A stretch of DNA of 64,000 nucleotides from Methanomassiliicoccales archaeon (GTDB lineage: Archaea; Thermoplasmatota; Thermoplasmata; Methanomassiliicoccales; UBA472): contig DATJOX010000030.1 in the NCBI GenBank assembly GCA_035506675.1, positions 14,796-78,795 of the forward strand, given 5' to 3'. Numbering within the stretch: position 1 is the first letter of the stretch; every line of letters starts with the position of its first letter. The translations under genes and the position numbers were made by a program. Of the stretch, positions 13,913 through 37,089 are shown one piece after another. Below the pieces are notes generated by a model, which was not told where the DNA came from, did no database searches, and saw only the letters and a program-made list of their open reading frames with translations.

Positions 13913-13985
13913 GGGCTCATGGTCTAGCGGTTATGACGTTTGCCTCACACGCAGAAGGTCGCCGGTTCGAATCCGGCTGAGCCCA
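13913..13985 (+). tRNA. tRNA-Val (anticodon CAC)
   Basis: Folded by hand. The acceptor stem is GGGCTCA/TGAGCCC and the D arm is GTCT..TGAC. The anticodon stem is TTTGC/GCAGA with loop CTCACAC, and the T arm is GCCGG-TTCGAAT-CCGGC. No CCA is encoded. Confidence 0.95.
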
Positions 13986-14007
13986 CTCACACTCTTATCC
14001 AGACAAT
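13973..14007. repeat. att-like direct repeat, proximal copy (tRNA-Val 3' end plus 22 nt)
   Basis: CCGGCTGAGCCCACT (13973-13987) and ATCCAGACAAT (13997-14007) both recur in the same order and orientation at 32900-32932. Confidence 0.7.
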
Positions 14008-14024
14008 TATTTATTGAATTCAAT

Positions 14025-15005: not shown

Positions 15006-15269
15006 GCTCGCACCTCTTGCGTGGCTATCGGTGAAGCCGTCAGACCTCGGCCTGTGCTTGCTCGTTCGCCGGTCCGCGGCTCCAGGGGCGAGTTGTTCGC
15101 GATGCCGTGATTTCCTCGCCCCCGATAGCATAGAGCGCGGGTGCTCTGTAATCTTGCCGGTCTGTCTCGAAGCCCCGCGATGGGGGTGCGGGCCGTTGCA
15201 AGCCTCGTTCAACTTCCACTATCACCGATACAAAAGCCAATAGAGCTTGAAACGCGATTGCGAACAAGA

Positions 15270-16073
15270 ATGGGGAGCAAGGACGACCGAATCGCTGAAA
15301 TAGCCAATCCTGAGCCATGCAACGACGATTCGTTGATCAGGGATGAGGCGCTGCGTCTCAGCGGCGCCTTCAGAGCGATAGGACCGATAAACGAACGTGA
15401 CATCCGACGGATGGCCGCGAAGGGCTTGGACCATCAGCTCAAGATGGTCCTCCTGTCGCAGATGCTCTTTCCCCGACTGTGCTCGATAATCGGAAGGGGT
15501 CTTACGATCGAAGAGCTGAGCCTTCTGGTAGGACTGGATGTAGCGGCCGCGAAGAGAGCGGTGAAAGCATCGAAGCTGGCAAAGGTGGCGGACATCACAC
15601 CTGTCAAAGTCGACAGTGAGCGGTTCGTAAAGGTCATGGTGCCGCTCAAGAGGACGATCAGCACTGAGGGAGGTGAGGTTCGGGAGCGGCCGGTCAGGGA
15701 GCCTATTCTGGCACGAAGGGAATTGGTCGAGCGAGTACAGCGAGAAGGCTATGTCACGAGAGAAGGCCGAGTCCTGCGTCATGATTACCTCGGATGGTTT
15801 CAGGACCAATGCCAACCGTCTACTTCTTCCGAAGCATCAACCAAGCGAGCGAAGCAGGAACTGGCCGAAGCGGGAACGAGTTCACTAGGGAGAGCACAAG
15901 CGCTGATCAAAAATACATTCGCGCGGAGCTGGAAGCTGCCGCTGCCGTGCTGGCATTCCTGGCGCCGCTCTTCCGCAGCGAGCATGCCCAGGTCATTGTT
16001 GAGCACCTTGCGAATTTCTTCTTTGCAACATATGAGAATGCCATACACTTCGCCTCGAGGCACCAAGCGTTGA
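15270..16073 (+). CDS. hypothetical protein of the integrase module (only about 15270-15911 looks coding)
   Basis: Starts MGSKDDRIAEI... The frame looks protein-like up to about 15911, after which frame +2 takes over. Confidence 0.35.
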   Translation: MGSKDDRIAEIANPEPCNDDSLIRDEALRLSGAFRAIGPINERDIRRMAAKGLDHQLKMVLLSQMLFPRLCSIIGRGLTIEELSLLVGLDVAAAKRAVKASKLAKVADITPVKVDSERFVKVMVPLKRTISTEGGEVRERPVREPILARRELVERVQREGYVTREGRVLRHDYLGWFQDQCQPSTSSEASTKRAKQELAEAGTSSLGRAQALIKNTFARSWKLPLPCWHSWRRSSAASMPRSLLSTLRISSLQHMRMPYTSPRGTKR

Positions 16074-16270
16074 GAGACCAGGCTACGTTCGATGAAATTG
16101 AACGCTTGGTATTGCCGCTGCAAGCAGCGGCACAGGGGCTCGAGAGGAACGAGTGGATCAAGGAAGAGCGCATGAGGAAGAGCGTCGCGACGGCGATGGA
16201 CAAGGTGTTGAAGGAGCTTGAGGCTGTGATTGAAGGGCGAGCTATGCTAGTTCCCGGCGTACTCCCATAG
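15794..16270 (+). CDS. hypothetical protein / downstream half of a frameshifted gene (coding-looking from about 15911)
   Basis: KYIRAELEAAAAVLAFLAPLFRSEHAQVIVEHLANFFFATYENAIHFASRHQ... is clearly protein-like. The N-terminal 40 aa of the listed ORF are not. Confidence 0.35.
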   Translation: MVSGPMPTVYFFRSINQASEAGTGRSGNEFTRESTSADQKYIRAELEAAAAVLAFLAPLFRSEHAQVIVEHLANFFFATYENAIHFASRHQALRDQATFDEIERLVLPLQAAAQGLERNEWIKEERMRKSVATAMDKVLKELEAVIEGRAMLVPGVLP

Positions 16271-16288
16271 ATCGTCCGACAGCCCCAA

Positions 16289-16669
16289 CTAGTCCCGACG
16301 ACAACTTTCGTGGAAATACCTCATCTTCTCCACGGCTGCACTAACCTGCTGTATCTCCTTGGGATTCAACAGGTTCCAGCGGATCGGTTTGCCGCACCGA
16401 ATGCATCTTCCAAGAATGACTCCGCCAAGTGCTCTTTGGATCGCCTCTACCTCGATCGCATCTCTTTCTTGTTCCTCGATTCGTTTGTTGTTTGTCTGGG
16501 CGGCCTCAGCCATCCCCGCTCCGATGAGCACGAGTTCGCGCAGTGTCCTCCCTGCTGCGCAGAGGTTGTCGAGGCGCTTGCGCTCCTCCTCAGAGACGCG
16601 AAAGGACACTACGGGCTTCTTGGCATCGTATCGGGTTTTCGCATTTTCCCTCTTGTTCTTCGGTATCAT
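16289..16669 (-). CDS. ribbon-helix-helix-like small protein with C-terminal Cys/His motif
   Basis: 126 aa. VSFRVSEEERKRLDNL is a typical RHH beta-strand/helix start, followed by CIRCGKP...HESC at the C-terminus. Confidence 0.55.
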   Translation of the reverse strand: MIPKNKRENAKTRYDAKKPVVSFRVSEEERKRLDNLCAAGRTLRELVLIGAGMAEAAQTNNKRIEEQERDAIEVEAIQRALGGVILGRCIRCGKPIRWNLLNPKEIQQVSAAVEKMRYFHESCRRD

Positions 16670-16684
16670 CCTAATCGGTGACCA

Positions 16685-16732: not shown

Positions 16733-16800
16733 GGGGTGCTAGGCGTTATCCGCGCTGCAAATTGTGCCTGAACCCCACTTGAACTGATTGCTAGCCGCCC

Positions 16801-17589
16801 TCACGAAGACCTTGCGCGAATCGCCCTCAATAGCGCAACAAACGTGGCTTCCTCTGGCATTACATCCACCTTAACACCAAGAGCCTCCAACGCCTTCTTT
16901 GTTGGAGGACCAATCGCACCGACGAGTTTCAGATTCAAAGAGAGTCTTGCATCGGCCTCGGAGTACTTCAGGGCCCATTCAGCCACGAAGCTGTGTGCCG
17001 ACATTGAGCTAGTGAATGCAAATGCATCAACCCTCCCTTCCCTTGCCGATTTGATCACGGCCATGAGCTCATCTGACGCAACGGACCGGTGAAGTCTGTA
17101 CACGACCACCTCTCTTACAGAAACGCCGCTTGACTCAAGCCCCTCAGACATCACTTTCGATCCTTGGTCAGATCGCAGCACCCAGACCGTCCGGGGCCTA
17201 GGGCTCAAATCCGTTATCGCCTCGACTGCACCCTCGGACGTGAAACACTTGGGAACCAGGCTATCCCGCAATCCTATTCTGTCCAACCTTCGCTTGGTAA
17301 CTGGCCCGATTGAAATCAGTGGAACATGGCTCAGTCCCAGCAAGAGGGCGTCCCTCTCCCTCCGATGGTCGGCAAGATCAAACGCCGCGTCGACTCCCGT
17401 GGCCGAGGTGAACACAACCATCTCCACTTCCCTATTTGCGAGCCCCTTGAGGAATGCGGAGAACTCTTCGCTGTCATGCACCTCAACGTCGACGGGCGAG
17501 GCTGCCACTACCTCGAAGCCCATATCGCGAGCGAGCGCAATAGATTCTTGGAGTCGGTCCTTAGGGCGCATTATGGCCAGTACTGTCAT
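16801..17589 (-). CDS. hemD: uroporphyrinogen-III synthase
   Basis: 262 aa with a HemD-like two-domain pattern. The start overlaps the stop of the upstream hemC-cobA fusion by 4 nt. Confidence 0.75.
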   Translation of the reverse strand: MTVLAIMRPKDRLQESIALARDMGFEVVAASPVDVEVHDSEEFSAFLKGLANREVEMVVFTSATGVDAAFDLADHRRERDALLLGLSHVPLISIGPVTKRRLDRIGLRDSLVPKCFTSEGAVEAITDLSPRPRTVWVLRSDQGSKVMSEGLESSGVSVREVVVYRLHRSVASDELMAVIKSAREGRVDAFAFTSSMSAHSFVAEWALKYSEADARLSLNLKLVGAIGPPTKKALEALGVKVDVMPEEATFVALLRAIRARSS

Positions 17590-19220
17590 CCTAAATCCCC
17601 TAAGACCTTACGCATTCGGGCGACGTTTCCTACCACCACAACCGCGGGGGATCCAATCCCCTGGGCGCCGCAAGCTTCTGCAACGTTAGCGACCGTTGCG
17701 ACGACCGTCTTTTGCTCATCGGTGCTGCCCTTCTCGATCACGGCGACAGGGGTCTCCGGGTTCAACCCTCCTGCCACTAAAGATGTCATGTTGTGCGCGA
17801 GATTCGACATGCCCATGAGTATTACGATAGTGCCATCGAGCTTGGCAAGTGACGCCCAGTCGACGGTCTCCTTCTTCTTTCCAGCCGACTCGTGACCTGT
17901 TACGAAGGTTACCTGCGAAGCCAATCCCCGGTGGGTGACAGGGATCCCTGCCATTGCCGGTGCTGCAATCGCCGATGTGACGCCGGGTACAAGGTGCACC
18001 TTCACTCCGCGATCTCTCAAGAACTCTGCCTCTTCGCCTCCCCGGCCGAAGAGGAATGGGTCTCCTCCCTTCAGCCGAACGACTTTCTTTCCGGCTCTCG
18101 CCTCATTTAGGAGGGCTTCGTTAATCTCGTCTTGTTCGGCCTTGTGGTGCTTGCCACGCTTGCCCACGTCGACCAGTTTCACTTGTGGCGAGAGCTCCTT
18201 CAAGATACCTGAAGCGACGAGCGCATCATGAACGACTACATCCGCTTCTCGCAGCAATCTTGCGCCCTTGACCGTTATCAGTTCGGCGTCCCCGGGGCCG
18301 GCGCCTACAAGGAAGACCTCCCCCTCGTCCTCGGAGGCCGGTCTCGCCTCTGTCCAGCGTCGCTTTAGATTCTCAGCAAATCGTCTGAGCCTATCCCGTT
18401 CGGCTCCCGAATCAAGCGCGATCTCGTCCTCAATGGCTCGCTCGCCCCTCTCCTCGAGGATGTTTGCTCTTACTCGCAATTGCCCACCCTCGTGCCTAGC
18501 GTTGATACCGATTGGCAGATAACATCCTCCTCCGAGGGCCTCCAACACCGTCCGCTCGGCCTCCACTTCTTCTCGCGTCGGTGGGTCGTCCAGTCGGCCT
18601 AGGATCTCGCGGAACGGACTCTTTGTAGAACACACAACCGCTATCGCGCCCTGACCCGCGGAAGGCACAAACCTTGCAGGATCGAGGACGAAGTAGCTCA
18701 CGTCGAGCCCGAGGCGCTCGATCCCTGCCTTAGCGAGGATGATCGCATCGTACTCTCCCTCGCGCATCTTCCTGATCCTTGTGGGTACGTTCCCGCGGAT
18801 GTCCTTCGTCAGCAAGTCCGGCCTGACTCGTTTGATCAAAGCCGCGCGTCGCACGCTCGACGTCCCGATGATGGCTCCTTGCGGAAGAGACTCAAGCGGG
18901 GTCTCCGAAACGAGAACGTCCTCTGACGGACCACGACGAATCACTGCGGCGATCATCGTCCCTTCAGTGAGGTCGACGGGCATATCCTTCAGACTGTTAA
19001 CGGCCGCATCGATCTCCCCGGCCATTATCTTGGAATCCAGTTCTTTGGTGAATGCTCCGATCCCTCCGAACGACTTCAAGGGCCGGTCACGGACATCGTC
19101 GCCGGTCGTCTTCACCTTCACAATCTCAACATCCAGATCGGGTGCGACGTTTCTTAATCCGTCCACGACCATCTGCGTCTGGAACACCGCAAGGTTGCTG
19201 CCGCGGGTACCTATGATCAA
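17586..19220 (-). CDS. hemC: fusion protein: hydroxymethylbilane synthase (HemC) plus uroporphyrinogen-III C-methyltransferase (SUMT/CobA)
   Basis: The N-terminal ~290 aa (IGTRGS.LA..Q, GGIGAFTKELD) are HemC. The C-terminal ~245 aa (VFLVGAGPGDAELITVKG..LL..ADVVVHD, GGDPFLFGRGGEE, PGVTSA) are SUMT. Confidence 0.85.
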   Translation of the reverse strand: MIIGTRGSNLAVFQTQMVVDGLRNVAPDLDVEIVKVKTTGDDVRDRPLKSFGGIGAFTKELDSKIMAGEIDAAVNSLKDMPVDLTEGTMIAAVIRRGPSEDVLVSETPLESLPQGAIIGTSSVRRAALIKRVRPDLLTKDIRGNVPTRIRKMREGEYDAIILAKAGIERLGLDVSYFVLDPARFVPSAGQGAIAVVCSTKSPFREILGRLDDPPTREEVEAERTVLEALGGGCYLPIGINARHEGGQLRVRANILEERGERAIEDEIALDSGAERDRLRRFAENLKRRWTEARPASEDEGEVFLVGAGPGDAELITVKGARLLREADVVVHDALVASGILKELSPQVKLVDVGKRGKHHKAEQDEINEALLNEARAGKKVVRLKGGDPFLFGRGGEEAEFLRDRGVKVHLVPGVTSAIAAPAMAGIPVTHRGLASQVTFVTGHESAGKKKETVDWASLAKLDGTIVILMGMSNLAHNMTSLVAGGLNPETPVAVIEKGSTDEQKTVVATVANVAEACGAQGIGSPAVVVVGNVARMRKVLGDLG

Positions 19221-20497
19221 GACCTCACCACCCGTGGAAGCGCGGAAGCGAACGCGTCCAGGGAGTGGTCGACAACTGTCTTGTCATGAGCGGTGGACAA
19301 GAAGTTGGTCTCCCATTGTGATGGGGGCAGGTAGACTCCTGCTTCGAGCAGTTCACGGAAGAGCCTCATGAACAGTGCCGAGTCGCATTCCTTCGCCCCG
19401 GCGTAGTCGCGCACTTCCGCGTTGCAGAAGAACAACTGGAACATCGAGCCGATGCCTTGCACGCGATAATCGAGCCGCATGTCCTGCAGGATCTGCTCGA
19501 GACCGCGCCTCATCCTCTTGCCTTGTGAGTTCAGATCATCATGCCCCTTCCTTTCAAGAATCTCAATCGTCTTCATTCCTGCCGCGAGACTGAGCGGGTT
19601 GCCGCTGAAGGTGCCCGCCTGATACACCTTCCCTACTGGCGAGACCATCGACATAATCTCCCGCGAGGCACCGAAGACGCCGATGGGAAGGCCCCCGCCC
19701 ACGATTTTCCCGAGGGTGGTGATGTCGGGTCGGATTCCGTAGTACTCTTGCGCTCCGCCCATGGCCAATCGGAATCCAGTGATGACCTCGTCGAATATCA
19801 GTAGGATCGAGTTCTCCTCAGTGAGCTCCCTTAGCCCCCGCAGATAGTCCTCATCGGGGAGGATGGGACCTGCATTTCCAATAACTGGTTCCAGGATCAA
19901 AGCAGCCACCTGGTCACTCTCGGCCTTAATCAGTCTCGACATGGCGTCGAGGTCGTTGAACGGGACGAGCAGTGTGTTCGAAGTGACCTCCCCAGGGATG
20001 CCGAGTGAGTCGGGGGTGCTATGGGTCGTCGCTCCTGATCCGGCCTTTACCAGCAGAGCGTCATGGGCTCCGTGGAAGGCGCCTTCAACTTTGATTATCT
20101 TCTTCTTGCCGGTGTAGCCTCTTGCCACTCTCAAAGCATGCATGGTGGCCTCGGTCCCGGAACTCACGAAGCGCATCATTTCCATTGAGGGGTAGTATCG
20201 CGAGATCAACCTCGCCATCTCCACCTCCTTTTCGATCGGCGCGCCGTAAAGGACCCCTTGCTGTGACTGCGCTTTGATTGCCTCAACGACCTCAGCCCTG
20301 GCGTGACCCAGTATGAGAGGGCCGAAGCCCATGCAGTAATCGATGTATTCGTTCCCATCGACGTCGGTCATGTGTGCGCCTTTGGCTCTTGCCATGTACC
20401 TTGGATAAGGGGCGAATGCCCTGACCGGGCTGGAAACGCCTCCAGGCAGCAGCAACCTGGCTTCCTCGAAAAGCTCCCGCGAGATGCGACTGGTCAC
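19217..20497 (-). CDS. hemL: glutamate-1-semialdehyde 2,1-aminomutase
   Basis: 426 aa, a class III aminotransferase with the HemL pattern (SR.LFE.A...PGGV.SPVRAF, FDEV.TGFR). Confidence 0.9.
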
Positions 20498-21471
20498 TTC
20501 GATCCTCCTCTCAGCATCTCCGCTGCCTCAAGCGCGTGATAGGTGATTATCATGTCAGCACCGGCGCGTTTGATCGAAAGCAGCGTTTCCATTATCATCC
20601 GCTCCCCATCAATCCAGCCACGTTGCGCGGCCGCTTTCAGCATTGAATACTCTCCGGAAACATTGTAGGCGGCAATTGGCACCCTGAATTCTCGTCTCGC
20701 GGCGGAGATTACGTCCAGATAGGCGAGGGCAGGCTTGACCATGATGATGTCTGCCCCCTCATTGAGGTCGAGCTCCATCTCCCTCAGCGCTTCCCTGACG
20801 TTGGCAGGGTCCATCTGATGGCTCTTGCGGTCCCCGAATTTCGGAGCTGACTCAGCCGCATCCCTGAACGGTCCATAGAAAGCCGATGCGAACTTGGCAC
20901 TGTATGCCATGATGGCGACATCCTCGAACCCCTTTTCGTCCAAAGCGGCGCGAATCGCTGCAACCTGCCCATCCATCATGCCGCTTGGCGCGATAATGTC
21001 CGCTCCCGCCCCCGCCTGGCTTTGCGCCACCTTGGCGTAGAGCCTGAGTGTCTCATCGTTCTCGATTTTACCTTTACGTAGGGCTCCACAGTGCCCGTGC
21101 GAGGTGTACTCGCAAAGGCAGAGATCTGTGACTACTGCGACGTCTGATACCCTCTTGATCTCCATTACTGCCTTCTGGACGATTCCGTTCTCATCCCAAG
21201 CGCTGCCTCCCTCTTCGTCCTTCATTGCAGGTATCCCAAAGAGGAGAACCGCCGGAATTCCCAGAGCCTCGGCCCTCTTCGCTTCCTTCGCTACCTCGGA
21301 AAGCGGCAACGCTTCCACCCCCGGCATCGAAGGGATGGGCTTGCGCTTGCGAATCCCCTCGTTCACGAAGAACGGGTAAATGAGATCGTTCTGGGTGAGC
21401 ACAGTCTCACTGACCATCTGCCTAGTCTTCGGCCGCATGCGCAGTCTTCGCATTCGGTTCTCTGGGAACAT
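20494..21471 (-). CDS. hemB: porphobilinogen synthase (ALA dehydratase)
   Basis: 325 aa with RMRRLR, LIYPFFV, an active-site region and ITY.A at the C-terminus. Confidence 0.9.
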
Positions 21472-22729
21472 GCTTGTCTGCCTCCACCTTAAACAGTTCT
21501 TTCACGAGCTCGGAGTAGCGCACATCCCCATCATGCGCCGCCCCCTTGAGCACCTGCGTTGGATCAGCGAGGAAGCGGTAGATGAGCGAGTTCGCGAAAT
21601 CCTCCACCACGTTCTCTGATGTCTCGCCCGCCTTTATGCGGTTCAGCGCCTTGCGCACCTCCCGCTCCTTGATGTCATTGAATTTCTGGTAAAGTGAGCC
21701 GATGGCAATCTCCGCCGCCATTTCGTCCAGCCTCTTGGACAATACCTGAAGCTCTTCGCCGATGATGCGTTCAGCGTCCTTCACCTCGCCCTTCCGCTTG
21801 ACGATGTTGTCCGCCGCGACGCCGCGAAGTCCGTCAATGTCATAGAGTTCGACACCGGGAATATCGGCGACATCAGGCGCCACGTTCCTTGGCATGCTTA
21901 CGTCGATTATCATCAACTTCCCTCGACCGTTGCGGATCTCCATCGCGGAATCGATGTGTCGCTTCTCAAGAATCATGTGCGTCGCTGATGTCGCGCACAG
22001 CACCACATCGCTTTGAGCGAGGAATTCCAAGAGTGAATCAAAGCGCACTGCCTTCCCGTTCAACGCGAACGCGAGTTCCACCGCCCTGGAGTAGGTGCGA
22101 CTAGAAACGAATACCGCCTCCGGCTCCTTTCCGATGAGGTGCCTTGCCACAAGGGTGGCCATCTCTCCGGCCCCGATTACTAGCACGTTCCGCCCCTTCA
22201 GCGGTCCGAGCTTCGATTCCGCGAGCTCCACAGCCGCGCTGCCAACCGAGACGCAGCCCTTGCTCAGTCTCGTTTCCGACCTGACCTTCTTGCCGACGCT
22301 GATCGCCTTCCGGAAGACTATGCTCAAGATCGGTCCGATGCATCCATCGCGACAAGAAACGTCAAAAGCCTCCTTAACCTGCGACTGGATCTGGTCCTCG
22401 CCGATTATCATCGACTCGAGGCCTGAAGAGACGCGGAGGAGATGTCTTATCGAATCGTTTCCCGAAAGAAACTGCACAAGATTCTGGTGGCTGTCATAGG
22501 GAATGAATGAGTTGACGAATACCTCGAGTTCGCGCCTTGTCGCTTCCCAGTCATTCGTCACCGTGTAAATCTCGACTCGATTGCATGTCTTCAGCACGAC
22601 GCACTCTCTGACCCCCTGCATCTTGCGCAGCGCGCTAAGGAGATAGAACACGTTTCGGCTGCCTATCAGCTCAAGCTTCTCCACGCCAACGCTTTTGTGC
22701 GTAATGTGGGCGCTAAGGATTGCGTCCAA
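21422..22729 (-). CDS. hemA: glutamyl-tRNA reductase
   Basis: 435 aa with [23 protein letters not shown] and VIGAGEM motifs. Confidence 0.9.
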
Positions 22730-23342
22730 TGGATCCCTCCAGCTTCTGCATAGCCAGGCTCATTGCCTTCTTCTTGTCCAATCTCAGTTCTTCCCAGATC
22801 ATGTTGTCTTCAAGTATCATGCGTAACAGCCGCTCTCTTTCCGATTGTTGTCCAATTCTGCGTTTCGCAATCACACGCATATCGCGTTGCAGATCGACCA
22901 TATCTTCGCATCCCTCGGGTAACCCTTCCTGGACGCGTAGACTGAGGAAGCGTGCCATCGCAGGACTGTTGCCCATTGTTGAAATCGCAATCGTGAAGTT
23001 ACGCTTCTGCACCGTGGATGGAATTATGAAGGACGATATGCCATCCGCTCGGTTGCATGGCTTGCCAAGATCAATCGCGATTGCGCAGATGCGTCCATTC
23101 AATTCAGTATCGTCGGTTGCCGCCACGACGAAATCGGCTCCTTCGATCCAGGGCCGAGGATCACTTGAAGCATCGGAGCGAATCAACTCGATCTGAGTAT
23201 TTTGGAAGGCCTTCACGAAATCGAGGCTAATCACAGCGACCCTCGCCTCGGATGCGAAGTAACTCGCCTTACGGAATCCTACTTCTCCGCCACCGAACAC
23301 GACGATTCTTTTACCGACTAGATCCAAGAATAACGGCAGCAA
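22713..23342 (-). CDS. sirC: precorrin-2 dehydrogenase / sirohydrochlorin-forming SirC (CysG N-terminal domain type)
   Basis: LPLFLDLVGKRIVVFGGGEVG is the typical N-terminus. TTG at 23342 gives 209 aa; the ORF formally opens at ATG 23474. Confidence 0.7.
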   Translation of the reverse strand: MLPLFLDLVGKRIVVFGGGEVGFRKASYFASEARVAVISLDFVKAFQNTQIELIRSDASSDPRPWIEGADFVVAATDDTELNGRICAIAIDLGKPCNRADGISSFIIPSTVQKRNFTIAISTMGNSPAMARFLSLRVQEGLPEGCEDMVDLQRDMRVIAKRRIGQQSERERLLRMILEDNMIWEELRLDKKKAMSLAMQKLEGSIGRNP

Positions 23343-23470
23343 ATCAATCGGCCTCTTTCGAATCCGTTTAGAGTTTCCTAACGACTCCTTGTTGTCGGCA
23401 ATGCGCTCAAGATATAAGGGCAGTGCGCGTGACGAGACGCAAACGTGTACTAATCTCTTGGAGGGATAAA

Positions 23471-23500
23471 CCATCCATCAAAGGATGGATAATCCATCCA
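23471..23500. promoter_or_regulatory. palindromic ATCCATC/GATGGAT cluster in the divergent hem/cfb intergenic region
   Basis: GGATGGAT-A-ATCCATCC (23483-23499) is a perfect 8+8 palindrome. A further ATCCATC lies at 23473-23479. Confidence 0.35.
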
Positions 23501-23594
23501 TTATTGCCAGCATTCGGAGTTCCAAACATATTTATCATGAATGCCCATTACTGCAAGCTGCCCTTAGGGGGCGAATTCGAGGGAGAAATCGAGG

Positions 23595-23993
23595 ATGAAA
23601 TCGGGAGTCTTAGTGGTCGGACACGGAAGCAAATTGGAGTACAACAAGAACCTCGTAACGCACATGGCAGAAATTCTCAACAAGAGAGGGGAATTTGGTC
23701 CTGTCGTAGCTGCATTCATGCAGCTCAACCAGCCCGACATCAAGACTGGTATCAAGACCTTGGCGCATTTGGGAGTAGATACGATCTACGTGCAGCCATG
23801 CTTCCTCGCATCCGGAATCCATCTCACAGAGGATATCCCTGGCGAACTCGGATTCAAGAAGGGGGACATCGAGGGAAAGATGAGTGTCGAAGGGAAGACC
23901 ATTGCTCTAAGATATTGCGGCCCAATCGGGAGCGACGACCGTATCGCCGATATCCTGGCCGATCGCATACACGAGAGGATGAAGAAGGTCTAG
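23595..23993 (+). CDS. cfbA: sirohydrochlorin nickel/cobalt chelatase, small CbiX type (CfbA)
   Basis: 132 aa. VLVVGHGS...QP.FL..G.H...DIP is the CbiX(S)/CfbA pattern, in the context of the cfb genes. Confidence 0.85.
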   Translation: MKSGVLVVGHGSKLEYNKNLVTHMAEILNKRGEFGPVVAAFMQLNQPDIKTGIKTLAHLGVDTIYVQPCFLASGIHLTEDIPGELGFKKGDIEGKMSVEGKTIALRYCGPIGSDDRIADILADRIHERMKKV

Positions 23994-23995
23994 GT

Positions 23996-25285
23996 TTGAG
24001 GGTCTTGTTGCTGGACCTGACCCACGGCGCTTCTATCTTGGCACAAGAGTACCGCCGACAAGGCAACCAGGTCACCTGTGTCGACGTCTACAGTACTGCG
24101 GGCGGATCACAGCTGAGGAATCTCAAATCGCAAGGCATACGAGTGTTGGACGATGCCCCATCCGAGGAATTCGATCTACTCGTGTCACCGATCCACTGCC
24201 CAGACTCGTACATCGGGAATGCGGCATTCAAACGAAGAATAACACACCACGAGGCGGCAGGGGAACTTGCGCAGTTCGAACGCCCAACCATCGAGGTGAC
24301 AGGCGCAGGAGCCAAGACCAGTACTTGTCATGTTATCGCTCACATGCTCACCTTCGCCGGGCTCAGAGTCTTCTTGCTCACAAGCAGCGGAATTTCGTTG
24401 GTCAACAAGGGGCGCGTTGAGATTATCCATAATCATTCGTCAATCGCCCCGGCGTCGGTGCTCGAAGCGAGCCTGATGAAAGTGGACTACGACTGGGGTG
24501 TGTTCGAGGTATCGCTCGGCGGTACTGGAGCAGCTGATGTCGGAGTTATTACAACCCTCGGAAACGACTACCCAATTGCGAAGGGTACCAGGAGTGCATA
24601 TGACGGGAAGTCCCAGATGGTTCGCCTCGCAAAGAAACGAGTCGTAGTGCCAATGGTGGAGGTTGGTGTTTGGAAACCCCTTCTTGAACCTGGAGTCGAA
24701 ATGACGACTTTCGGGATTGACGGGGACGTCGAACTCATGATTCCGAGGGGGCTTCAACTCGAATCTGGCACGCAAGCGCGAATCAGAACTTCCGACATTG
24801 AGGAGAGCATCGATCTTCCTGGCGGCTACCTAATCCCGGCATACCTCACCGCTTTGAACGCGTCCCTTGGGGCTATCTCAGCCTCGGGAACAAGCATGCA
24901 CGCGGCAATCAATTCCCTGAAAACGTTTCGAGGGGTACCTGGACGAGGAGAAGTGCACAAGGAGGATGATTGCTGGGTCATAAGAGATCGAAACCCAGGC
25001 GTGAGCGCCGCATCGCTTGACTGGCTCTTACGTGTGCTCGAAGATAGCTACGGCATCAATGATATCGGCGTTGTCATCGACCCAGTAAGTCCCAAAGTGT
25101 GTGAGAAACTCGACCTAGAACAAATGTCCTCGGCGATGGATCACTATCGGAGCGTCTGTGGGCGATACTTGCTCGGATCGGACATGAAAGAGAGGCGCAT
25201 GGGGTTCAGGAACATCCGCAACGTGTCAGAAATCAAACGGAATCACAAAGCGCTCCTTTGGTGCACCAAGGAGGGATACGTTTGA
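23996..25285 (+). CDS. cfbE: coenzyme F430 synthetase (Mur-ligase-like, CfbE)
   Basis: Mur-ligase P-loop VTGAGAKTST. It is the inner part of the 620-aa ORF 23423-25285, with a TTG start at 23996, 2 nt after the cfbA stop. Confidence 0.75.
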   Translation: MRVLLLDLTHGASILAQEYRRQGNQVTCVDVYSTAGGSQLRNLKSQGIRVLDDAPSEEFDLLVSPIHCPDSYIGNAAFKRRITHHEAAGELAQFERPTIEVTGAGAKTSTCHVIAHMLTFAGLRVFLLTSSGISLVNKGRVEIIHNHSSIAPASVLEASLMKVDYDWGVFEVSLGGTGAADVGVITTLGNDYPIAKGTRSAYDGKSQMVRLAKKRVVVPMVEVGVWKPLLEPGVEMTTFGIDGDVELMIPRGLQLESGTQARIRTSDIEESIDLPGGYLIPAYLTALNASLGAISASGTSMHAAINSLKTFRGVPGRGEVHKEDDCWVIRDRNPGVSAASLDWLLRVLEDSYGINDIGVVIDPVSPKVCEKLDLEQMSSAMDHYRSVCGRYLLGSDMKERRMGFRNIRNVSEIKRNHKALLWCTKEGYV

Positions 25286-26367
25286 CCGACGTACTCCATC
25301 CCCGCCCGAATCCAATTGTCGCCGCTATGTATACCCTTCGCGACCTGGATGCTGATGTCGTCATCATTCACGGGCCTGCGGGGTGTGGGTTCATGGCCTC
25401 GAGGAGGCTGGAGGAGGCGGGGGTCAGGGTCGTCACAACCGGAATGAGGGAAGGGGATCTGATCTTTGGAGCCGAAGAGAAGCTCATCAACGTCCTTATG
25501 CATGTCGAGAAGGAGTTCCATCCGAAGCTGGTGGGGATCGTAGGCACCTGCGCCAGCATGATAATCGGCGAGAATCTAGACTCGGCGATCAAGAAGGCGA
25601 AGATTCAGGCTACAGTAATTCCAGTTGACATACACGGGTGCGCCGGCCCGAACACATCCGGTGCGATCAGGACCCTCGAGGTGGCGGCGCAACGAGGCGT
25701 AGTCCCTCAAGAGGAGATGGAACGCCAGAGGGACATGCTGAACCGCGCAACCCTACTGGAACAGGAAAAAGGGATGACCTCGAGAACATATCTCGAACCG
25801 CACAATGGCGCGACCAAACTCGAGGTGGCGCTTGAAGTCGTCTGCACCTTGCGCAGGGGCATGAGCGTCGGTGTTGTCTTGAACGCGAAGAAGGAGACAG
25901 CGTTTGGATTCGCGGATGTGATGCGCGCGGTAGAATATGCACGCAAGAAGGTGGGGGGCCGAACTGTTCATTTGGGCAATCTCGCCCTTGGTGTTGGACT
26001 GCCCCGCATCAGGCGTTACGCGGCAGAGATAACACGCGACCTGCAAGCGGCCGGTGTCGATCTATCCTGCATAACCGGTGGACTAGACGAATACCCAGTC
26101 GCAGGTGAGATTGCTGCGCACTTTCTAGATGAGAGGCCGGTCGATCTTCGGGTCATCGCCGGGCTACCGCACGCGATCCCGGGAATTAGGGCGGATGACG
26201 TGCTCGTCACAGATCAGCCGAGAGAGCTGCGCAACTTGATCGACCGGGGGTTTGCCCGCTCAGTCGGGGAAATCAACACCCATGCCCAGGTCATGAACGC
26301 CCATTCCATTCTCCCGAACGAGCTGGGGCAGACGATTCGGCAAGTAGTGGACGGGGGCCTGGCGTGA
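25282..26367 (+). CDS. cfbD: Ni-sirohydrochlorin a,c-diamide reductive cyclase, NifD/NflD-like subunit (CfbD)
   Basis: Nitrogenase-component-1-like ([10 protein letters not shown]). The start is TTG 25282, overlapping the cfbE stop, or the upstream in-frame start at 25258 where the ORF opens. Confidence 0.75.
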
Positions 26368-27155
26368 GGCAAATCGCGATCTACGGGAAGGGCGGCATCG
26401 GGAAGTCAACGATCTCCGCCAACGTTGCTGCCGCGATGGCCGAAAAGGGCCTCGTGACCTGGTACGTGGGATGCGATCCGAAGAGCGATGGCTCAATGAC
26501 GCTCATGGCCGGAAGGAGGATCGACACGCTCTTGGAACAAATGAAGAACCAAAGCGAATCCCGCTATGAGATATGCACTGGTTACGCGGGCGTCCGGTGC
26601 GTCGAGATCGGCGGCCCGCTGGCAGGAGTGGGATGCGCCGGTCGGGGAATAATTGTCGCCTGCCAGGCGCTCAGGAGAGACTACTTTTCGAAGGAGAGCA
26701 TCGACGTCATAATCTACGATGTCCCCGGTGACGTTGTGTGCGGCGGCTTCGCGGCGCCATTACGTGAAAGGTTCGCGGATGAGGTTTACATCGTCACCAG
26801 CGGCGAGTACCTGGCTCTATTCGCTGCGAACAACATCGCCAAGGGATTGAAGAATCTGAACATTAGGCTCGGTGGAATCATTTGCAACTCTCGCGAGGTA
26901 CCGAACGAGGAACAGGTCTCCAAGGAGTTTTCTCGGAAGATCGGCACGGCCTTCACCGGCTTCATACCAAGGGACCCCATTGTCAGAGAATGCGAAAACA
27001 AAGGCGAGACCGTAATCGAGTGCGTGCCGGGGAGCAAGCAGGCAGAAGCATATCGGAGGCTCGCTGATTCCATTTTGAGTAACGAGAGATTCACAGTACC
27101 CGAACCAATGGCGCCCGAAACAATAAGGGAAATGCTGAGGGAACTGGGATCATGA
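26364..27155 (+). CDS. cfbC: Ni-sirohydrochlorin a,c-diamide reductive cyclase, NifH-like ATPase subunit (CfbC)
   Basis: [14 protein letters not shown]-loop and cluster cysteines in GVGCAGRG and DVVCGGFA. It has 4-nt overlaps with both neighbours. Confidence 0.85.
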
Positions 27156-28513
27156 ACGTTCGCAGGGTGGTAATCGCGGGCGTAGGAAGCGGCGTAGGTA
27201 AAACCACCATCGCGACTGGCATCATGGCTTTGCTCTCAAGACAATATCGCGTTCAGGCGTTCAAAGTGGGTCCAGACTTCATCGATCCAATGTATCACTC
27301 AGCAGCAACGGGCCGTCCCTCACGCAACCTCGATTCCTTTTTCATGGATGGACCGACGCTCGAGAACCTGTTCGGATGGGCTTCCCGAGATGCAGACATC
27401 GCGATCATCGAAGGAGTGCGTGGACTATACGACGGACTCACTTCAACAGGGGATGTGGGATCAACCGCTGAAATCGCCAAGATGCTCGACGCGAGCGTGA
27501 TCCTTGTGCTAAATGCGCGCTCTCTCGCCAAGAGCGCAGCGGCTCAGGTACTGGGATTCAAGATGCTCGATCGGCAGGTTAGGCTTGAGGGCGTAATCCT
27601 CAACCAGGTGTCTGGGCCACGCCATCGACAGAAAGCGATCGAAGCAGTCGAGCAGCTCACTTCGACCCCTGTCATCGGAGTCGTGGAACGCAGGAATGAG
27701 AGCTTCCCAGAACGCCATTTGGGACTAGTCACGATGCCCGAGAGAGACGCCGCTGAAACCATTGCGACAACCAAGGAATACGCAGCAGGGGTAGACCTAG
27801 ATCAGCTAATGGCCGCGGCGGAGAACCGTGGAGAGCGTAGCTTTCCAGAAGCATGCCCATTCATCCAGGAAGACGGCCCACGAGTCAAGGTTGGCGTCCC
27901 TCGTGATCGAGCGTTCTCGTTCTATTACCCTGAGAATATCGAGTCGATGCGAGCAGCTGGCGCTGAGATTGTGGAGTTTCACCCTACCGATGGAGATGGA
28001 CTACCAGAAGCCGATTCGTACTACTTGGGGGGTGGATATCCAGAGGTCTACGCGTCGAGACTGAGCGACAATACGGACTTCCTGGATGGGCTGAAGACGG
28101 TCTCGGACCAAGGAAGACTTGTTTATGGTGAGTGCGGTGGTCTGATGGTCCTGTGCACCTCGATTTTGGATGGGAGGTCAGAGCACCCGATGGCGGGAGT
28201 CTTTGAGTCGAAAGCTGAACTTACTCTTCATAGACAAGGACTGGCTTATGTCATGGCCCGTGCAACTGCTGACAACTTTGTTTTCCAAGGGGCCGAAATA
28301 CGAGGTCACGAGTTCCACTATTCGAAGCTTGTGCCGCTTCCTCGGGGCCCCTACGCGTACGACGTGAAGAGGGGCACGGGAATCGATGGCAATCACGATG
28401 GGATCCTGAAGAACCATACGGTTGGCACCTACATGCATCAGCACGCACTCGCGAACAAGGAGTGGGGGCGCGGTTTCATCAGAGCGACTATCGATTCGCT
28501 TGCAGGACGTTGA
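27152..28513 (+). CDS. cfbB: Ni-sirohydrochlorin a,c-diamide synthase (CobB/CbiA family, CfbB)
   Basis: 453 aa with [11 protein letters not shown], an [10 protein letters not shown] motif and a C-terminal glutamine-amidotransferase part ([15 protein letters not shown]). Confidence 0.85.
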
Positions 28514-28542
28514 GAGGCAACCCGGCCCATGATTCAGGCATA

Positions 28543-28971
28543 TCAATCGTGCCTGTGGTCGGTGACTTCTCCGGCCAGCAGAACGGGCTCTGTCGTGAGA
28601 ACGGATTTCACTGAAGCCAGACCCTCGTGCAACGCCCTCACCGTCCCGAGACTTCCGTGCACGACAAGCACTTCGAGGCACTTCTCATTGTCCAGGTGCA
28701 CGTGAATCGCTGAGGTAATCACACCATGGTAGTGATGCTGAACGTCTGTCAGGTGATCCTTGACGCTTCCTCGGTTGTGATTATAAAGTAGTGTTATCGT
28801 TCCCACGGCGTGAGCCTCGTTGTCCTTGATTGATTCCTGTACGAGAACCTTTCGTACAAGATCGCGGATGGCCTCCGAGCGAGTGGCGAAGCCTTTCTCT
28901 TGAATGAACCTGTCGAATTCCTCGAGCAGCTTGGGTTCAAGTGATACGCCAATCCTGGTTACCTTTTCCAT
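28543..28971 (-). CDS. nikR: nickel-responsive regulator NikR
   Basis: 142 aa with an N-terminal RHH (RIGVSLEPKLLEEFD, RSEAIRDLV) and a C-terminal metal-binding domain carrying His/Cys ligands (HHYH, HVHLD, C). Confidence 0.85.
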   Translation of the reverse strand: MEKVTRIGVSLEPKLLEEFDRFIQEKGFATRSEAIRDLVRKVLVQESIKDNEAHAVGTITLLYNHNRGSVKDHLTDVQHHYHGVITSAIHVHLDNEKCLEVLVVHGSLGTVRALHEGLASVKSVLTTEPVLLAGEVTDHRHD

Positions 28972-29082
28972 TAGGTTGTCGTACGGGGTTTCTGGCTCAA
29001 AAGGGTTGCCTTCACTTTTCCCTTCGACTTGAGCTAACTGCTGTTATGGCGTCTGCTCGTGCTCTCATGCCGAATGATTGAA

Positions 29083-29958
29083 TCATGTGTGGGGACTCTC
29101 ATGGATGTGGAATCGATCCCCTCTTTTCATGATCGCGTCAACCGCTTCGTCAATCGAGAATGGAAGTTCACTGGTATGATAACCGCAAGACGAAAGCACT
29201 CGGAAAAGGTGGGTGACCTCGGGTACATCCAGATTAGCTCTGTCCAGCAACGCCTCATCGGAAAGGACGTCGCGCACGCTCCCGCAGGCGATTAGGTTTC
29301 TCTTCAGCACCACGATACGCTTGGCGAAGTCCGGGACGGCGTTCACGTCGTGGGTGGCCACGATGACTGTTTTCCCCTCCCCAGAGAGGCGCTTCAGTAT
29401 GTCGATGACTGACTTCCTACTCCGCGGATCCAGGTCTGAAGTTGGCTCGTCGAAGAGGATTATCTCCGGCTGAATCGACAGCACACTGGAGATGGACACT
29501 TTCCTCTTCTCTCCTCCGCTCAACCGGTATGGTGCACGGTCCTTCAGATGCGAAATGCCCAGAGCGTCCAGAGCCGCGTTTCCTCTAGCTACCACATCGG
29601 CAGGCGAGAGGCCCATGTGCAGCGGTCCAAAGGTGACGTCATTCCACACCGAGGAACTGAAAAGGGCAACGTCTGAATCTTGGAAGACAATGCCCAGCTT
29701 CACTCGGAGCCAGTCCAGGTCGTGAGGTCGATCGATGCTGCGCCTGTCGATTTCCTTACCGCACACACGGACCGTTCCATCTGTGGCCGGTACTAGGCCG
29801 GCTATGACCTGCAGCAGAGTGGACTTTCCGGCACCGTTGGGACCGATAATGGCCACCGATTCTCCAGGATAGACGTCCAAGGACACGCTCTCTAGAGCGG
29901 CGTGTCCATCGGGATAGCTAAAGGAGACGCTTCTCAGAGATACTACGGGTTCAGACAT
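29083..29958 (-). CDS. cbiO: ECF transporter ATPase (CbiO/NikO type)
   Basis: Walker A GPNGAGKST, ABC signature LSGGEKRK and Walker B ILFDEPTS. Confidence 0.9.
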   Translation of the reverse strand: MSEPVVSLRSVSFSYPDGHAALESVSLDVYPGESVAIIGPNGAGKSTLLQVIAGLVPATDGTVRVCGKEIDRRSIDRPHDLDWLRVKLGIVFQDSDVALFSSSVWNDVTFGPLHMGLSPADVVARGNAALDALGISHLKDRAPYRLSGGEKRKVSISSVLSIQPEIILFDEPTSDLDPRSRKSVIDILKRLSGEGKTVIVATHDVNAVPDFAKRIVVLKRNLIACGSVRDVLSDEALLDRANLDVPEVTHLFRVLSSCGYHTSELPFSIDEAVDAIMKRGDRFHIHESPHT

Positions 29959-30831
29959 TCAGATATAGACCCCCATGGTCGCCAGTAGACTCTTGTAGGT
30001 GACCTGCGCGGCGAAGAGATCGAAAAGGACGACCACCGCCCCGAACGCAATTATCGCGGCGACGAGGGCATAGTCTCTCCAACCGCTTTTCGATGTGCTC
30101 AGTATCTTCGGGTCTCCGGCGTAACCCCGCGACAGCATCGCCAGGTAGACCTGCTCGCTCATATGAAGAGATTTCGAGAATAGGCTTGCCACTGAAGAAC
30201 CTCCGATGTTTCGAAGCTCAGCGGTGGTCGGTTTTCCAACCATGCGGCTCTTCCGGGCCATGAACATGTTCGCTACCGTGTCCAAAAGCACATGGATGTA
30301 GCGATAGGCCATATCCAATATGGTTATGAACGAAGAGGGGAAGCCAAGCTGCGCCAGCGCTCTCATCAACTTGGACCACTCCACCGACGCCACCAACAGG
30401 ATACTCAACGAGACAGCTGCCCCTACTCTAAGAGTGAATGTCAGCGCGTACAGCAATCCCTCGAGGGTGAAGTAGACGGTCGTGTCAAGAAGGCTGATGC
30501 TTTGCCCAACCATGCGGCCGGGCGTTATCAGGTTAGTCATGCTCGGCAGCAGGATCATCACCGTGAACAAGGGAATGAACAGCCAGACCCTCTTCAGGTA
30601 CCACCTCATGGGAACCCTGGAAGTTAAGGCCATTGCGTTGGCGAAGATGATGACTGCCAGGAGGCTGAGCGGGTTCTTCAGCAATACTGCCACCACCAAA
30701 AGAGAGATCAAGAGAACGAAGACGAAACGGGGGTCGGCGCTCTGCAACCAGCCATTTCGTCGAGAGATTGTCTCCAGATCGAGCGAGTTACGTAATACCT
30801 TCACCACGCCGTTTAATACTCGCTCGAACAC
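29959..30831 (-). CDS. cbiQ: ECF transporter transmembrane T component (CbiQ/NikQ type)
   Basis: 290-aa multi-pass membrane protein located between the ATPase and CbiN/M genes. Confidence 0.8.
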   Translation of the reverse strand: MFERVLNGVVKVLRNSLDLETISRRNGWLQSADPRFVFVLLISLLVVAVLLKNPLSLLAVIIFANAMALTSRVPMRWYLKRVWLFIPLFTVMILLPSMTNLITPGRMVGQSISLLDTTVYFTLEGLLYALTFTLRVGAAVSLSILLVASVEWSKLMRALAQLGFPSSFITILDMAYRYIHVLLDTVANMFMARKSRMVGKPTTAELRNIGGSSVASLFSKSLHMSEQVYLAMLSRGYAGDPKILSTSKSGWRDYALVAAIIAFGAVVVLFDLFAAQVTYKSLLATMGVYI

Positions 30832-30844
30832 TTTCCGCCACCTG

Positions 30845-31162
30845 TCACTTGTTCTCCTCTTGGATGCTCCTTCGCCCGAAAATGGTGCTCATTGCATACG
30901 TCACAAGAATGATAGCTGCAATCCCAACCAATGCCGAAATGATGTAGCCAAGTGAAGCCATGAGCTGACTGTCCCACCCGCTCAGGTCGTAGCCGTCCAG
31001 TGGAGCGCTCCACACTTTCCAAGGCACCCAGTTGCCCACCGAACCCCATTCTCCCCAGGCTTCCGAGAAGTTCCATACAACAAGGATACCTAGAGGCGAT
31101 ATTACAGCAAGCGCCAATAGGATTGCCAGCGTCTTCTTCGACATCAGCTTCGTCATGTTCAA
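30845..31162 (-). CDS. CbiN/NikN-like small membrane protein (PDGLE-type)
   Basis: 105 aa with N- and C-terminal TM helices flanking a W-rich periplasmic loop with APLDGYDL. Its position in the operon supports the call. Confidence 0.65.
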   Translation of the reverse strand: MNMTKLMSKKTLAILLALAVISPLGILVVWNFSEAWGEWGSVGNWVPWKVWSAPLDGYDLSGWDSQLMASLGYIISALVGIAAIILVTYAMSTIFGRRSIQEENK

Positions 31163-31932
31163 CTCTCTCCCTTAGCTTCGACTGGGACTCTTTCCTTCCT
31201 TGCCCCTTCATGCGATTCTGTCGGCTCTACATCCTTATAGACGCCTCGTAGCCAGCCAGGAGAGAGCTTGGGTAGCCTGAGAAGATCGGGCCGGTTCTCC
31301 GCTAGGTAATAGACGACTATGGCCGTGGTCAGGCCTTCGGCTATGCCGACTAAGAGGTGGGCTCCCACCATCGCCGGAATCGCGACATCAAGTCCATACG
31401 GTGAGTAGCCAGGAGCGATGATTGGCTGGATGCCGAACTCCACGGAGCCGCAGAACGCTGCCACAACAATGCCGATGTAGCCCCCCACAAAGGCCGACGC
31501 AGCCCTCGCCTTGGAGGTCAGTTTGCCGTCTTTGGTCAGGAGCTTCTTCACCCCGGCATATGCGAAGATGCCAGTGAAGGACATGACCACGCCCATGTTG
31601 AATACATTGGCCCCATACGCGGTCACACCGCCATCGCCGAACAACAGTGCCTGGATCAACAAGGCTATGCTGAGGGCAATGACTCCTCCGTACGGCCCCA
31701 ATACGATTGCGATGAGGACAGCGCCGACCATATGTGCCGTTGTGCCATCCGGTATCGGCAAATTGAACATCATCAGAATGAAGGACAAGGCGGCCATGAA
31801 TGACAGCACGGGCACGTTCCTAGGTCCTAGATTCTTGTTTGCGTTTCTGAATGCGAAAAACCATATGACTAGCATGACCAAGAACAAAGTTATGAAGGTT
31901 GCCGGTCCCAAGTATCCGTCTGGTATGTGCAT
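31159..31932 (-). CDS. cbiM: ECF substrate-capture component CbiM/NikM
   Basis: The N-terminus MHIPDGYL is the metal-binding signature of CbiM/NikM. It is a multi-pass membrane protein. Confidence 0.9.
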   Translation of the reverse strand: MHIPDGYLGPATFITLFLVMLVIWFFAFRNANKNLGPRNVPVLSFMAALSFILMMFNLPIPDGTTAHMVGAVLIAIVLGPYGGVIALSIALLIQALLFGDGGVTAYGANVFNMGVVMSFTGIFAYAGVKKLLTKDGKLTSKARAASAFVGGYIGIVVAAFCGSVEFGIQPIIAPGYSPYGLDVAIPAMVGAHLLVGIAEGLTTAIVVYYLAENRPDLLRLPKLSPGWLRGVYKDVEPTESHEGARKERVPVEAKGES

Positions 31933-31955
31933 TTTGATATCCCCATAACACGTTT

Positions 31956-32004: not shown

Positions 32005-32899
32005 ATATTTCTAATGGAAAAGTGTTATCGGACGCTGACAATAACCTCCACACAAATGCAAGTTGCATCGAAAATGTCACAACCGGTTCGAATTTGGATT
32101 GGATCATAAAGGAAGAGATAAGGTTAGTGAGCCTCGATTTACTCGTCGACGAGTCTGCCAAGAAACGCCACGATGATTTGAATCAGCAAACCGAGCCGTG
32201 GCCAAGTCTATTCGTCGGCATCATCGAGAACGTCCCAGGGGAGCGCGGGGTCGACAGCTCCTCGTTTCATGTGGTTGCACGTATTGAACTTGATTGAGTG
32301 CTACCAATTTTATAATAGTAACACGCTCACCCCCACCGACAAAAGCGGCGGTTCTTATGCGGCTCAATCACCAACGAGCTCCTCCTTTCCGCTGCTTTCT
32401 GTCATATCCTTATCATGTCTATGTTCTTTGAACCGCCGCACAAGGCGTAGTGTCGCCGAGATGGCTAGGCACACGGATTTCCTGCATCATGGTGCGCCTC
32501 ATTGTGATGCAAATAGAGCCGACAGGCCGATCCCCAACGTAGCGCCTTGTTCGTTGGCCGAGTGAATAAGGAAGAAAGTGTTTCCTGAAAAGAACCCATT
32601 AATCCGTTTCTGTCTCCTGGTTTGGGAGTGGATTTCACCTTCAATTCCACTGGAGAAATGCATTGCCGGCTGGAGTTAGGATTCGACTTCGGACAGATCC
32701 ACTTTCGATTCCAACCTCGGAATCTGATCGCTGGACTTCTTGCATGTCGAGTTCGGGCAGACCCACCAGTAACGGGCATCTTCGATTGACGACCGAGTCG
32801 AAGAAAAAGAAGTGTAAAAGGGTTTTCTGAGCTGGCTCACGTTCTAACTCGAATGAATAGAATTCCATTTGGATCATCTGGCTAGACGGCTGTGTGGTC

Positions 32900-32932
32900 C
32901 CGGCTGAGCCCACTTCCATCAATCCAGACAAT
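32900..32932. repeat. att-like direct repeat, distal copy
   Basis: CCGGCTGAGCCCACT (32900-32914) and ATCCAGACAAT (32922-32932) are identical to 13973-13987 and 13997-14007. Confidence 0.7.
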
Positions 32933-35468: not shown

Positions 35469-35480
35469 TCTTCCTCACCG

Positions 35481-37075: not shown

Positions 37076-37089
37076 GCGTGGGGACTAGA

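Follow-up and report, generated by a model that had tools for sequence, protein, structure and literature searches.

The window analysed here is a stretch of 64,000 nucleotides from contig DATJOX010000030.1 of a Methanomassiliicoccales archaeon, whose genome (G000) is 1.97 Mb long and 99% complete. The window contains a block of 16 hem, sir, cfb and nik genes, which is predicted to be the sole route from glutamyl-tRNA to coenzyme F430 in G000. The entire cargo of an 18.9 kb segment (13973-32914) consists of this block, and the segment is very probably a genuine integrative element inserted at the 3' end of a tRNA-Val gene. Our preferred explanation, held with slightly more confidence than doubt, is that a tRNA-targeting integrative element carries the F430 block as an accessory package, which has most likely passed between closely related members of the clade and is open to loss in a single event. 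That the package has moved between close relatives is, taken by itself, somewhat probable. The arrangement suggests that the making of F430, the essential nickel cofactor of the methane-forming enzyme, can be gained and lost as a unit.

The segment is bounded by two identical copies of the attachment (att) core, one of them at the end of the tRNA gene, as summarized in Table 1. The catalytic residues of the integrase encoded beside the left copy are invariant across three aligned homologues, and the protein shares 65-72% identity with integrases of the distant genera g2 and g3, several of which adjoin tRNA-Val or tRNA-Met genes. The right arm and core are matched in 16 of the 46 other genomes of the family (47 with G000), and the arm can be aligned across eight elements. 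At a tRNA-Met gene, genome G010, of a distant genus, carries an element in which the integrase, orfAB, orfC and right arm recur and the slot of the F430 block is filled by DNA methylase and cas1 genes. The repeats, the integrase, the conserved arm and this sharing of a backbone with other cargo indicate that 13973-32914 is one element. An earlier note on this DNA placed the block at 16801-31932, which holds for the extent of the genes but misses the boundaries of the element, namely the tRNA-Val gene, the integrase and the second repeat. The frameshift in orfAB is present in the likely-source-run contig as well; the gene is 38-40% identical to a single open reading frame (ORF) of 322 codons in the G010 element, has no match in Pfam, and gives only weak helix-turn-helix-like leads in Atlas (0.83 or lower). 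The orfC product gives Atlas matches of 0.92-0.93, including one cluster with RHH_1 on 59% of its members, and is a probable small DNA-binding protein of the ribbon-helix-helix-like type, which may act as a regulator or directionality factor. At default scoring, the interval of 870 bp that separates nikM from the right arm has no blastn match outside G000; under relaxed scoring, about 230 bp of it are matched in contig C23 of genome G001. Apart from the 16 cargo genes the element consists of the integrase, orfAB and orfC; it contains no replication genes and no capsid or packaging genes, the PHROGs collection not having been scanned.

The comparison includes only two genomes of the same genus, G001 and G002, which represent other species and are not strains of the species of G000. 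The tRNA-Val site is empty on one contig in G002, is occupied by two joined arms (a relic of about 130 bp) in G001, and holds an integrase remnant with other cargo in G007. The ancestral site of the block lies between cbiMNQO and a stretch of methyltransferase, oxidoreductase and sufCB genes. It is occupied in G009 and G012 and contains remnants in G017 and G021. This site is closed in G000 (C28:6053-9274, locus L084), where cbiO directly abuts the methyltransferase gene, and is closed in the same way in G002, a genome in which each of the two candidate sites is closed within a single contig. The non-coding arms of G000 are 76-79% identical to those of G001, and the coding flank is 77% identical.

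The composition of the cargo was compared with that of the host by ranking runs of 13 mechanically called ORFs. The G+C content at third codon positions (GC3) of the cargo is 0.65, as compared with a host median of 0.80, and is below that of all 543 other runs. The GC3 of the cargo minus that of the neighbours of the ancestral site is -0.13 in G000 and ranges from -0.06 to +0.04 in G009, G012, G042 and G022. The NikM type of the block is found in 3 of the 46 other family genomes, all of genus g5, with 74-75% identity. The low GC3 and the presence of the nearest nik module in another genus point to recent arrival. The integrase is 72% identical to one in a distant genus, and ten neighbouring chromosomal orthologues outside the cluster are 41-73% identical (median about 50%). 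In G043:C59 (locus L176, 6367-11400), a nikR-O-Q-N-M block of the type found in the window lies beside an integrase remnant in low-GC DNA.

Table 1. Features of the integrative element and of its cargo (positions in the window)
Feature	Position	Strand	Evidence
tRNA-Val(CAC), integration target	13913..13986	+	ARAGORN (introns left out of the search); the only one of 35 listed genes with this anticodon
att core, left copy, 15 bp, tRNA 3' end	13973..13987	+	identical to 32900-32914
conserved left arm, tRNA end to integrase stop	13988..14024	+	aligned with junctions of G007, G010, G017, G050 and G056
tyrosine integrase, 326 aa, uninterrupted	14025..15005	-	PF00589; R156, K181, K259-x-x-R262, H285, Y294
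orfAB, backbone gene	15267..16270 (start approximate)	+	split by frameshift near 15795
orfC, backbone gene	16289..16669	-	42% identical to same-position gene in G010
hemD, uroporphyrinogen III synthase	16801..17589	-	NF004587, E 1.7e-57, below cut-off
hemC-cobA fusion	17586..19220	-	TIGR00212 and TIGR01469 above cut-off
hemL	19217..20497	-	TIGR00713, 577 bits (cut-off 527)
hemB with Cys-rich zinc-site motif	20494..21471	-	NF006762 above cut-off; motif located
hemA	21422..22729	-	TIGR01035 above cut-off
sirC, precorrin-2 dehydrogenase	22713..23342	-	TIGR01470 above cut-off; start corrected to 23342
cfbA, nickel chelatase	23595..23993	+	NF033198, 139 bits (cut-off 120)
cfbE, F430 synthase	23996..25285	+	NF033197, 295 bits (cut-off 250); start corrected to 23996
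cfbD, reductive cyclase catalytic subunit	25282..26367	+	TIGR03282, 402 bits (cut-off 268); NifD/E/K at most 53 bits; start corrected
cfbC, reductase subunit	26364..27155	+	best NF033200, 360 bits (cut-off 402); NifH 319, BchL 187
cfbB, a,c-diamide synthase	27152..28513	+	best NF033195, 511 bits (cut-off 560); CobB 499
nikR	28543..28971	-	NF003381 above cut-off; His/Cys motifs present
nikO	29083-29958	-	CbiM/CbiQ/ECF ATPase profile set for importer
nikQ	29959-30831	-	CbiM/CbiQ/ECF ATPase profile set for importer
nikN	30845-31162	-	part of nikM-N-Q-O type ECF importer 29083..31932
nikM	31159-31932	-	importer profile labelled CbiM
conserved right arm, about 110 bases inside repeat	32802..32899	+	72-79% identical to best matches
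att core, right copy	32900..32914	+	identical to 13973-13987

The genes of the block were identified from NCBIfam profile scores against the curated cut-offs, and Pfam was used for the ORFs outside the cargo. The 16 genes, their strands and their order are as the earlier note gave them, with open frames and matching profiles. Its assignment of the cfb genes from motifs and context is likewise upheld: CfbA, CfbD and CfbE score above the cut-offs, the expected motifs are present in the block proteins, and no protein is moved to the nitrogenase, BchL or cobalamin families by the profile searches. The production of F430 is predicted from these families. For CfbC and CfbB, the highest scores are those of the Cfb models, although they stay below the cut-offs, and the identity of both proteins is settled by orthology. 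CfbC is 73% identical to a cfb-linked gene in G019, and the genome has no nifD/K partner; CfbB is 69% identical to the cfb-linked amidase and 38% identical to the cbi-linked amidase of G009, which has both. When each of the 16 genes was searched against G000 by tblastn, the hem and cfb genes were each found only once. Thus, the claim that each enzyme of the F430 route is represented once is confirmed, and no better copy exists elsewhere in this genome. The only sequences related to hemL are aminotransferase paralogues (27-30% identical), and cfbB has one 23% paralogue; nikR and the importer M, Q and O genes have other paralogues. CbiF has no match above the cut-off in G000. A non-methanogen host is ruled out by mcrA, which is found above the cut-off on contig C57. 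The earlier statement that gene junctions mostly overlap by 4 nt is true, narrowly: 7 of the 13 co-directional junctions do so, two overlap by 17 and 50 nt, and four are gaps of 0, 2, 13 and 111 nt. The hemC-cobA fusion is also present in G019, and the two genes are separate in G009, G012 and G022. The adjacent nikR and the F430 context favour a predicted specificity of the energy-coupling factor (ECF) importer for nickel. The His/Cys motifs of NikR presumably provide nickel ligands, and the N-terminus MHIPDG of the importer, which we take to be of the NikM type, is also present in the paralogue at the ancestral site. No NikR operator is resolved upstream of nikM by alignment with four homologous regions.

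The linkage of hem, cfb and nik genes had been regarded as a mark of a self-contained, transferable module. This reasoning fails, because clustering of hem and cfb genes, with or without nik genes, is the ordinary arrangement in Methanomassiliicoccales. Eight of the 11 related cfbD loci carry hem and cfb genes together, and four also have an M-Q-O importer adjoining hemD; the other three are a short contig with hem out of view (G024), a short contig with hem and cfb reordered (G027), and a locus with only cfb in view. Cobalamin (cbi) genes lie between sirC and cfbA in G009, G012 and G019, and are absent from the G000 block. The idea of a transferable module itself is supported, by evidence that the earlier note did not cite: the integrase, the att repeats, the conserved arm and the empty site of a congener. 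No transfer or excision was observed, and the trees speak against a distant donor; clustering alone is no sign of mobility. In another family, a co-directional sirC-hem-cfb cluster lies a few kb from a tRNA-Val(CAC) gene in G029 (L013-L014), L105 and L106. In G029 and L105, a tRNA-Leu gene lies on the other side of the cluster, and the 3' ends of both tRNA genes point towards the cluster. Around the cluster between the tRNA-Leu and tRNA-Val(CAC) genes in G029 and two gut contigs, the search for att repeats gave none.

The F430 genes are patchily distributed among the relatives. Among 41 genomes including G000, mcrA is found in 39 and cfbD in 16; the numbers are 33/34 and 16/34 for those at least 90% complete. 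Throughout the family, cfbD is found in 14/47 genomes and hemB in 18/47. When only genomes at least 95% complete are considered, the CfbD profile is matched in 83 of 106 order-wide, whereas cfbD is present in 7 of 18 in the family of the window with G000 (6/17 without it), as compared with 16/16 and 56/64 in families f6 and f7. Neither G001 nor G002 gives a match for cfbA, cfbB, cfbD, cfbE or hemB, and both have mcrA. The presence of cfbD in only 7 of the 18 near-complete family genomes points to widespread F430 salvage, and relatives without the block would have to import F430 or a late precursor. Eight genomes retain cfbE without cfbD. Decaying clusters, in which cfbE is kept, cfbA, cfbC and cfbD are gone and some hem genes are left, are seen in G021, G017, G035, G004, G011 and G039 (L022, L023, L025, L026, L028, L029); in the first four, the remnant cluster is contiguous and the missing genes have been excised from it. 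A cfbE that is either an orphan or a second copy adjoins an ATP-binding cassette (ABC) importer in G018 (L024, 5547-11427), G006 (L027), G012 (L008) and G024 (L010). The importer beside cfbE in G018, a single-contig genome without cfbA, cfbD and hemB, is of the FecCD/periplasmic-binding type, and has homologues in G000 on C41 and C51. The position of cfbE without cfbD beside an importer fits the uptake of seco-F430, the substrate of CfbE, and the pair is a candidate seco-F430 salvage unit.

Several results weigh against a recent movement of the package. The phylogenetic trees, constructed by FastTree from query-anchored alignments from which rows below 45-60% coverage were dropped, are congruent. 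In the core tree (four genes), G000 groups with G001 and G002, which are sisters (0.93), next to genera g6 and g7. In the cfb tree (23 rows) and the hem tree (21 rows), G000 is the sister of g6 with support of 1.0 and 0.999, in agreement with the core tree and with ordinary branch-length ratios. This congruence gives no support to a distant donor. (A first hem tree with fewer taxa, in which G019 and G022 grouped at 0.81, was unstable.) Tree congruence and the orfAB frameshift point to long residence or decay. The low GC continues for about 11 kb past the right att copy, and GC alone is therefore no boundary marker. The absence of the block in congeners is known from two genomes, one of which is 86% complete. 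Neither a VirB4 nor a relaxase Pfam match is found in the non-cargo ORFs of the element, and PF03135 (VirB4) is absent from the genome, relaxases having been searched in the element only; because conjugation and replication genes are lacking, any transfer would need a helper or the uptake of free DNA. Neither the 11 genome loci nor the 21 closest metagenome loci contain another instance of cfb genes within an element of this kind, and three pattern matches for cfbD in viral contigs were not confirmed. The integrase, orfAB and orfC have no match in 80 metagenome loci, and the arm profile gives one weak match on the 21 closest ones, pointing away from the cluster. No excision or circle junction is matched in the contigs of four runs; contigs, which were used instead of reads, drop rare variants. 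A joint in run X2 (32916 -> 13997) contains 8 letters that match neither end, and probably belongs to another element.

These points are shared in part by a rather unlikely alternative, in which the chromosomal block was already taken up by the element in the genus ancestor and then disappeared from its old site. The element, now domesticated, would since have been inherited vertically at tRNA-Val and lost from the branch of G001 and G002, and no transfer between cells would have been required. The agreement of the cargo trees with the species tree, the sufficiency of one loss for two sister genomes, the empty ancestral site in both G000 and G002, and the orfAB frameshift are all consistent with this ancient relocation, as is the relic arm of G001, which is among the closest to that of G000. 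However, the GC3 of the cargo is unameliorated, the intact integrase is 72% identical to one in a distant genus, as compared with a median of about 50% for the neighbouring orthologues, the non-coding arms are as similar to those of G001 as the coding flank is, and the nik module is closest to that of another genus. An improbable alternative is that the integrase and att repeats are a dead remnant, which the block entered through a separate recombination event at a tRNA hot spot, and that the unit never moved as a whole. The site does collect foreign DNA, with about 12 kb more of accessory DNA past the right att copy, and the G019 cluster, near which neither an arm nor an integrase is matched, has likewise left the ancestral site. 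Against this reading, the cargo occupies the slot from orfC to the right arm, where G010 has a different cargo, and both the intact state of the integrase and the identity of the two cores speak against a dead remnant.

The remaining alternatives concern the data. It is very improbable that the F430 genes are universal and that low-GC blocks were dropped from metagenome bins, although most of the compared genomes are multi-contig and the accessible text of PMC8351635 ascribes missing HemBCD in Methanomassiliicoccales to unfinished genomes. The single-contig genome G018, the excised but contiguous clusters of G021, G017, G035 and G004, and the two closed sites of G002 are not explained by binning, and the same search recovers cfbD in all near-complete genomes of f6 and in most of those of f7. 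A mis-assembly of the link between element and cargo is hardly credible. No exact contig spans 13986-14247, the join of the tRNA and integrase genes, in the 66% of the likely source run covered, but a junction of the same form is present in five other genomes, and independent contigs of this run cover 14248-19098 and 19100-33390 with zero differences; they run from the integrase into hemD and from nikM through the right arm into the flank. Runs X2 and X5 contain exact or near-exact pieces of integrase and cargo, and run X3 gives no useful cover of the element.

If the block is the cargo of a mobile element, as we prefer, the sequence of events may be as follows. An attP circle would have recombined into the 3' end of the tRNA-Val gene by means of the integrase that it encodes; the tRNA would have been restored and each end of the element would carry a copy of the 15-bp core, which is the anatomy observed. 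The lineage would have lost the ancestral chromosomal copy, which also held cobalamin genes. From knowledge of the families, HemA, HemL, HemB, HemC and HemD are expected to produce uroporphyrinogen III, and CobA and SirC to convert it to sirohydrochlorin, into which CfbA would insert nickel; CfbB would then amidate, CfbC and CfbD reduce, and CfbE close ring F. The ECF importer is likewise expected to supply nickel under the control of NikR. The element may be settling into the chromosome, since its loss would leave the cell dependent on outside F430.

Like the cfbABCDE cluster of methanogens, the block holds five cfb genes in one copy each. A Methanomassiliicoccus cluster with tetrapyrrole and nickel-transport genes is reportedly described in the F430 pathway papers of 2016-2017. 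Unlike the usual cfb cluster, that of G000 lacks cbi genes, lies off the ancestral site and between att repeats, and has a different nik module on the cfbB side. According to the accessible parts of the sources, cfb genes are clustered in a few methanogens (PMC7242693), and three Methanomassiliicoccales genomes have a cluster of nflD, murF-like and nifH-like genes (PMC4153887). The element resembles the archaeal cryptic integrated elements (CIE) with type II (pNOB8/lambda-like, non-split) integrases, which, in the available portions of PMC6563490 and PMC8371274, likewise have an intact integrase, small DNA-binding genes, metabolic cargo and no signature of virus or conjugation; their median size is 17 kb, as compared with 18.9 kb here. 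It differs from them in that the integrase has K-x-x-R, the SSV-type consensus, yet its gene is not split, and in that the cargo is not an auxiliary gene but the sole 16-gene pathway for the cofactor of the only energy-conserving route of the host. The cfb sets of Archaeoglobi WYZ-LMO2 and Helarchaeales show that such sets can move, as judged from trees with no named vehicle in the accessible text of PMC9982363, which describes cfb genes as mostly vertical with few shallow transfers; in contrast, G000 has a visible vehicle and a tree without a distant donor. The literature searched, which included few subscription papers and no supplements, where gene-presence tables could be present, yielded no description of an integrative element with cfb genes. 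A known pathway lies in a known class of element, and the combination was not found described. The location of the sole F430 pathway in an att-bounded element supplies a concrete means for the rare transfers of cfb genes, and a way to become auxotrophic in a single step.

F430 is made by all isolated methanogens according to the part of PMC11362671 consulted, and the rumen Methanomassiliicoccales strain ISO4-G1 is predicted, in the accessible text of PMC10658910, to need outside F430. That case is one gut strain with one gene missing, whereas here 11 of the 18 near-complete family genomes have no cfbD match and the two best-sampled other families mostly keep it. The gaps throughout the family predict an importer of F430 or seco-F430, for which the FecCD-type ABC system beside orphan cfbE is a candidate, and suggest adding F430 when these archaea are cultured. 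The compact set of 16 genes is a natural cassette for the study of F430 synthesis in a laboratory host.

Contig C23 of G001 (L183, 183-14757) carries a second, divergent set of mcrB, mcrG and mcrA, which ends at a right arm belonging to this family of elements. Its McrA is 42% identical to that of G000, scores below the cut-off and is strongly changed in the active-site region. The set also includes McrC, Mmp3, marker 7, component A2, a corrinoid protein and four MtaA-like genes. The arm has the longest similarity to that of G000 (about 330 bp), while the att core is truncated, mcrB is in two ORFs and the contig ends before any integrase; no relative was found in genome_contigs. The view that this mcr set is the cargo of an element is suggestive only. 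We offer as tentative, with doubt prevailing, the wider proposal that a family of tRNA-targeting elements shuttles core methanogenesis machinery among wetland Methanomassiliicoccales (F430 and nickel import here, the mcrBGA set in G001), that most family members are scavengers of F430 or seco-F430, and that the cofactor is a shared good, with producer status switched by integration and excision.

A second, decayed insertion of the same element family is present in G000 on contig C49 (L087, about 9000-9233), where the same left arm recurs after an intron-containing tRNA-Met gene, with an integrase remnant of 30 residues. In G017 (L053), G050 (L056) and G014 (L187), genes for large fibronectin-type surface proteins (1218 and 3610 amino acids) or for phosphate and zinc ABC importers are flanked by other elements or arms of the family. 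Just outside the right att copy in the window, bases resembling the left arm suggest an older element at the same site. About 12 kb of low-GC accessory DNA (32915-44700) lie on this side, with genes for a second cardiolipin synthase, a PAS response regulator, a photolyase and a second CobW-type GTPase, after which synteny with G002 resumes. Upstream of the tRNA gene lie tandem KaiC-like ATPase genes (10602-12858 and about 9900-10600), which are conserved in the congeners.

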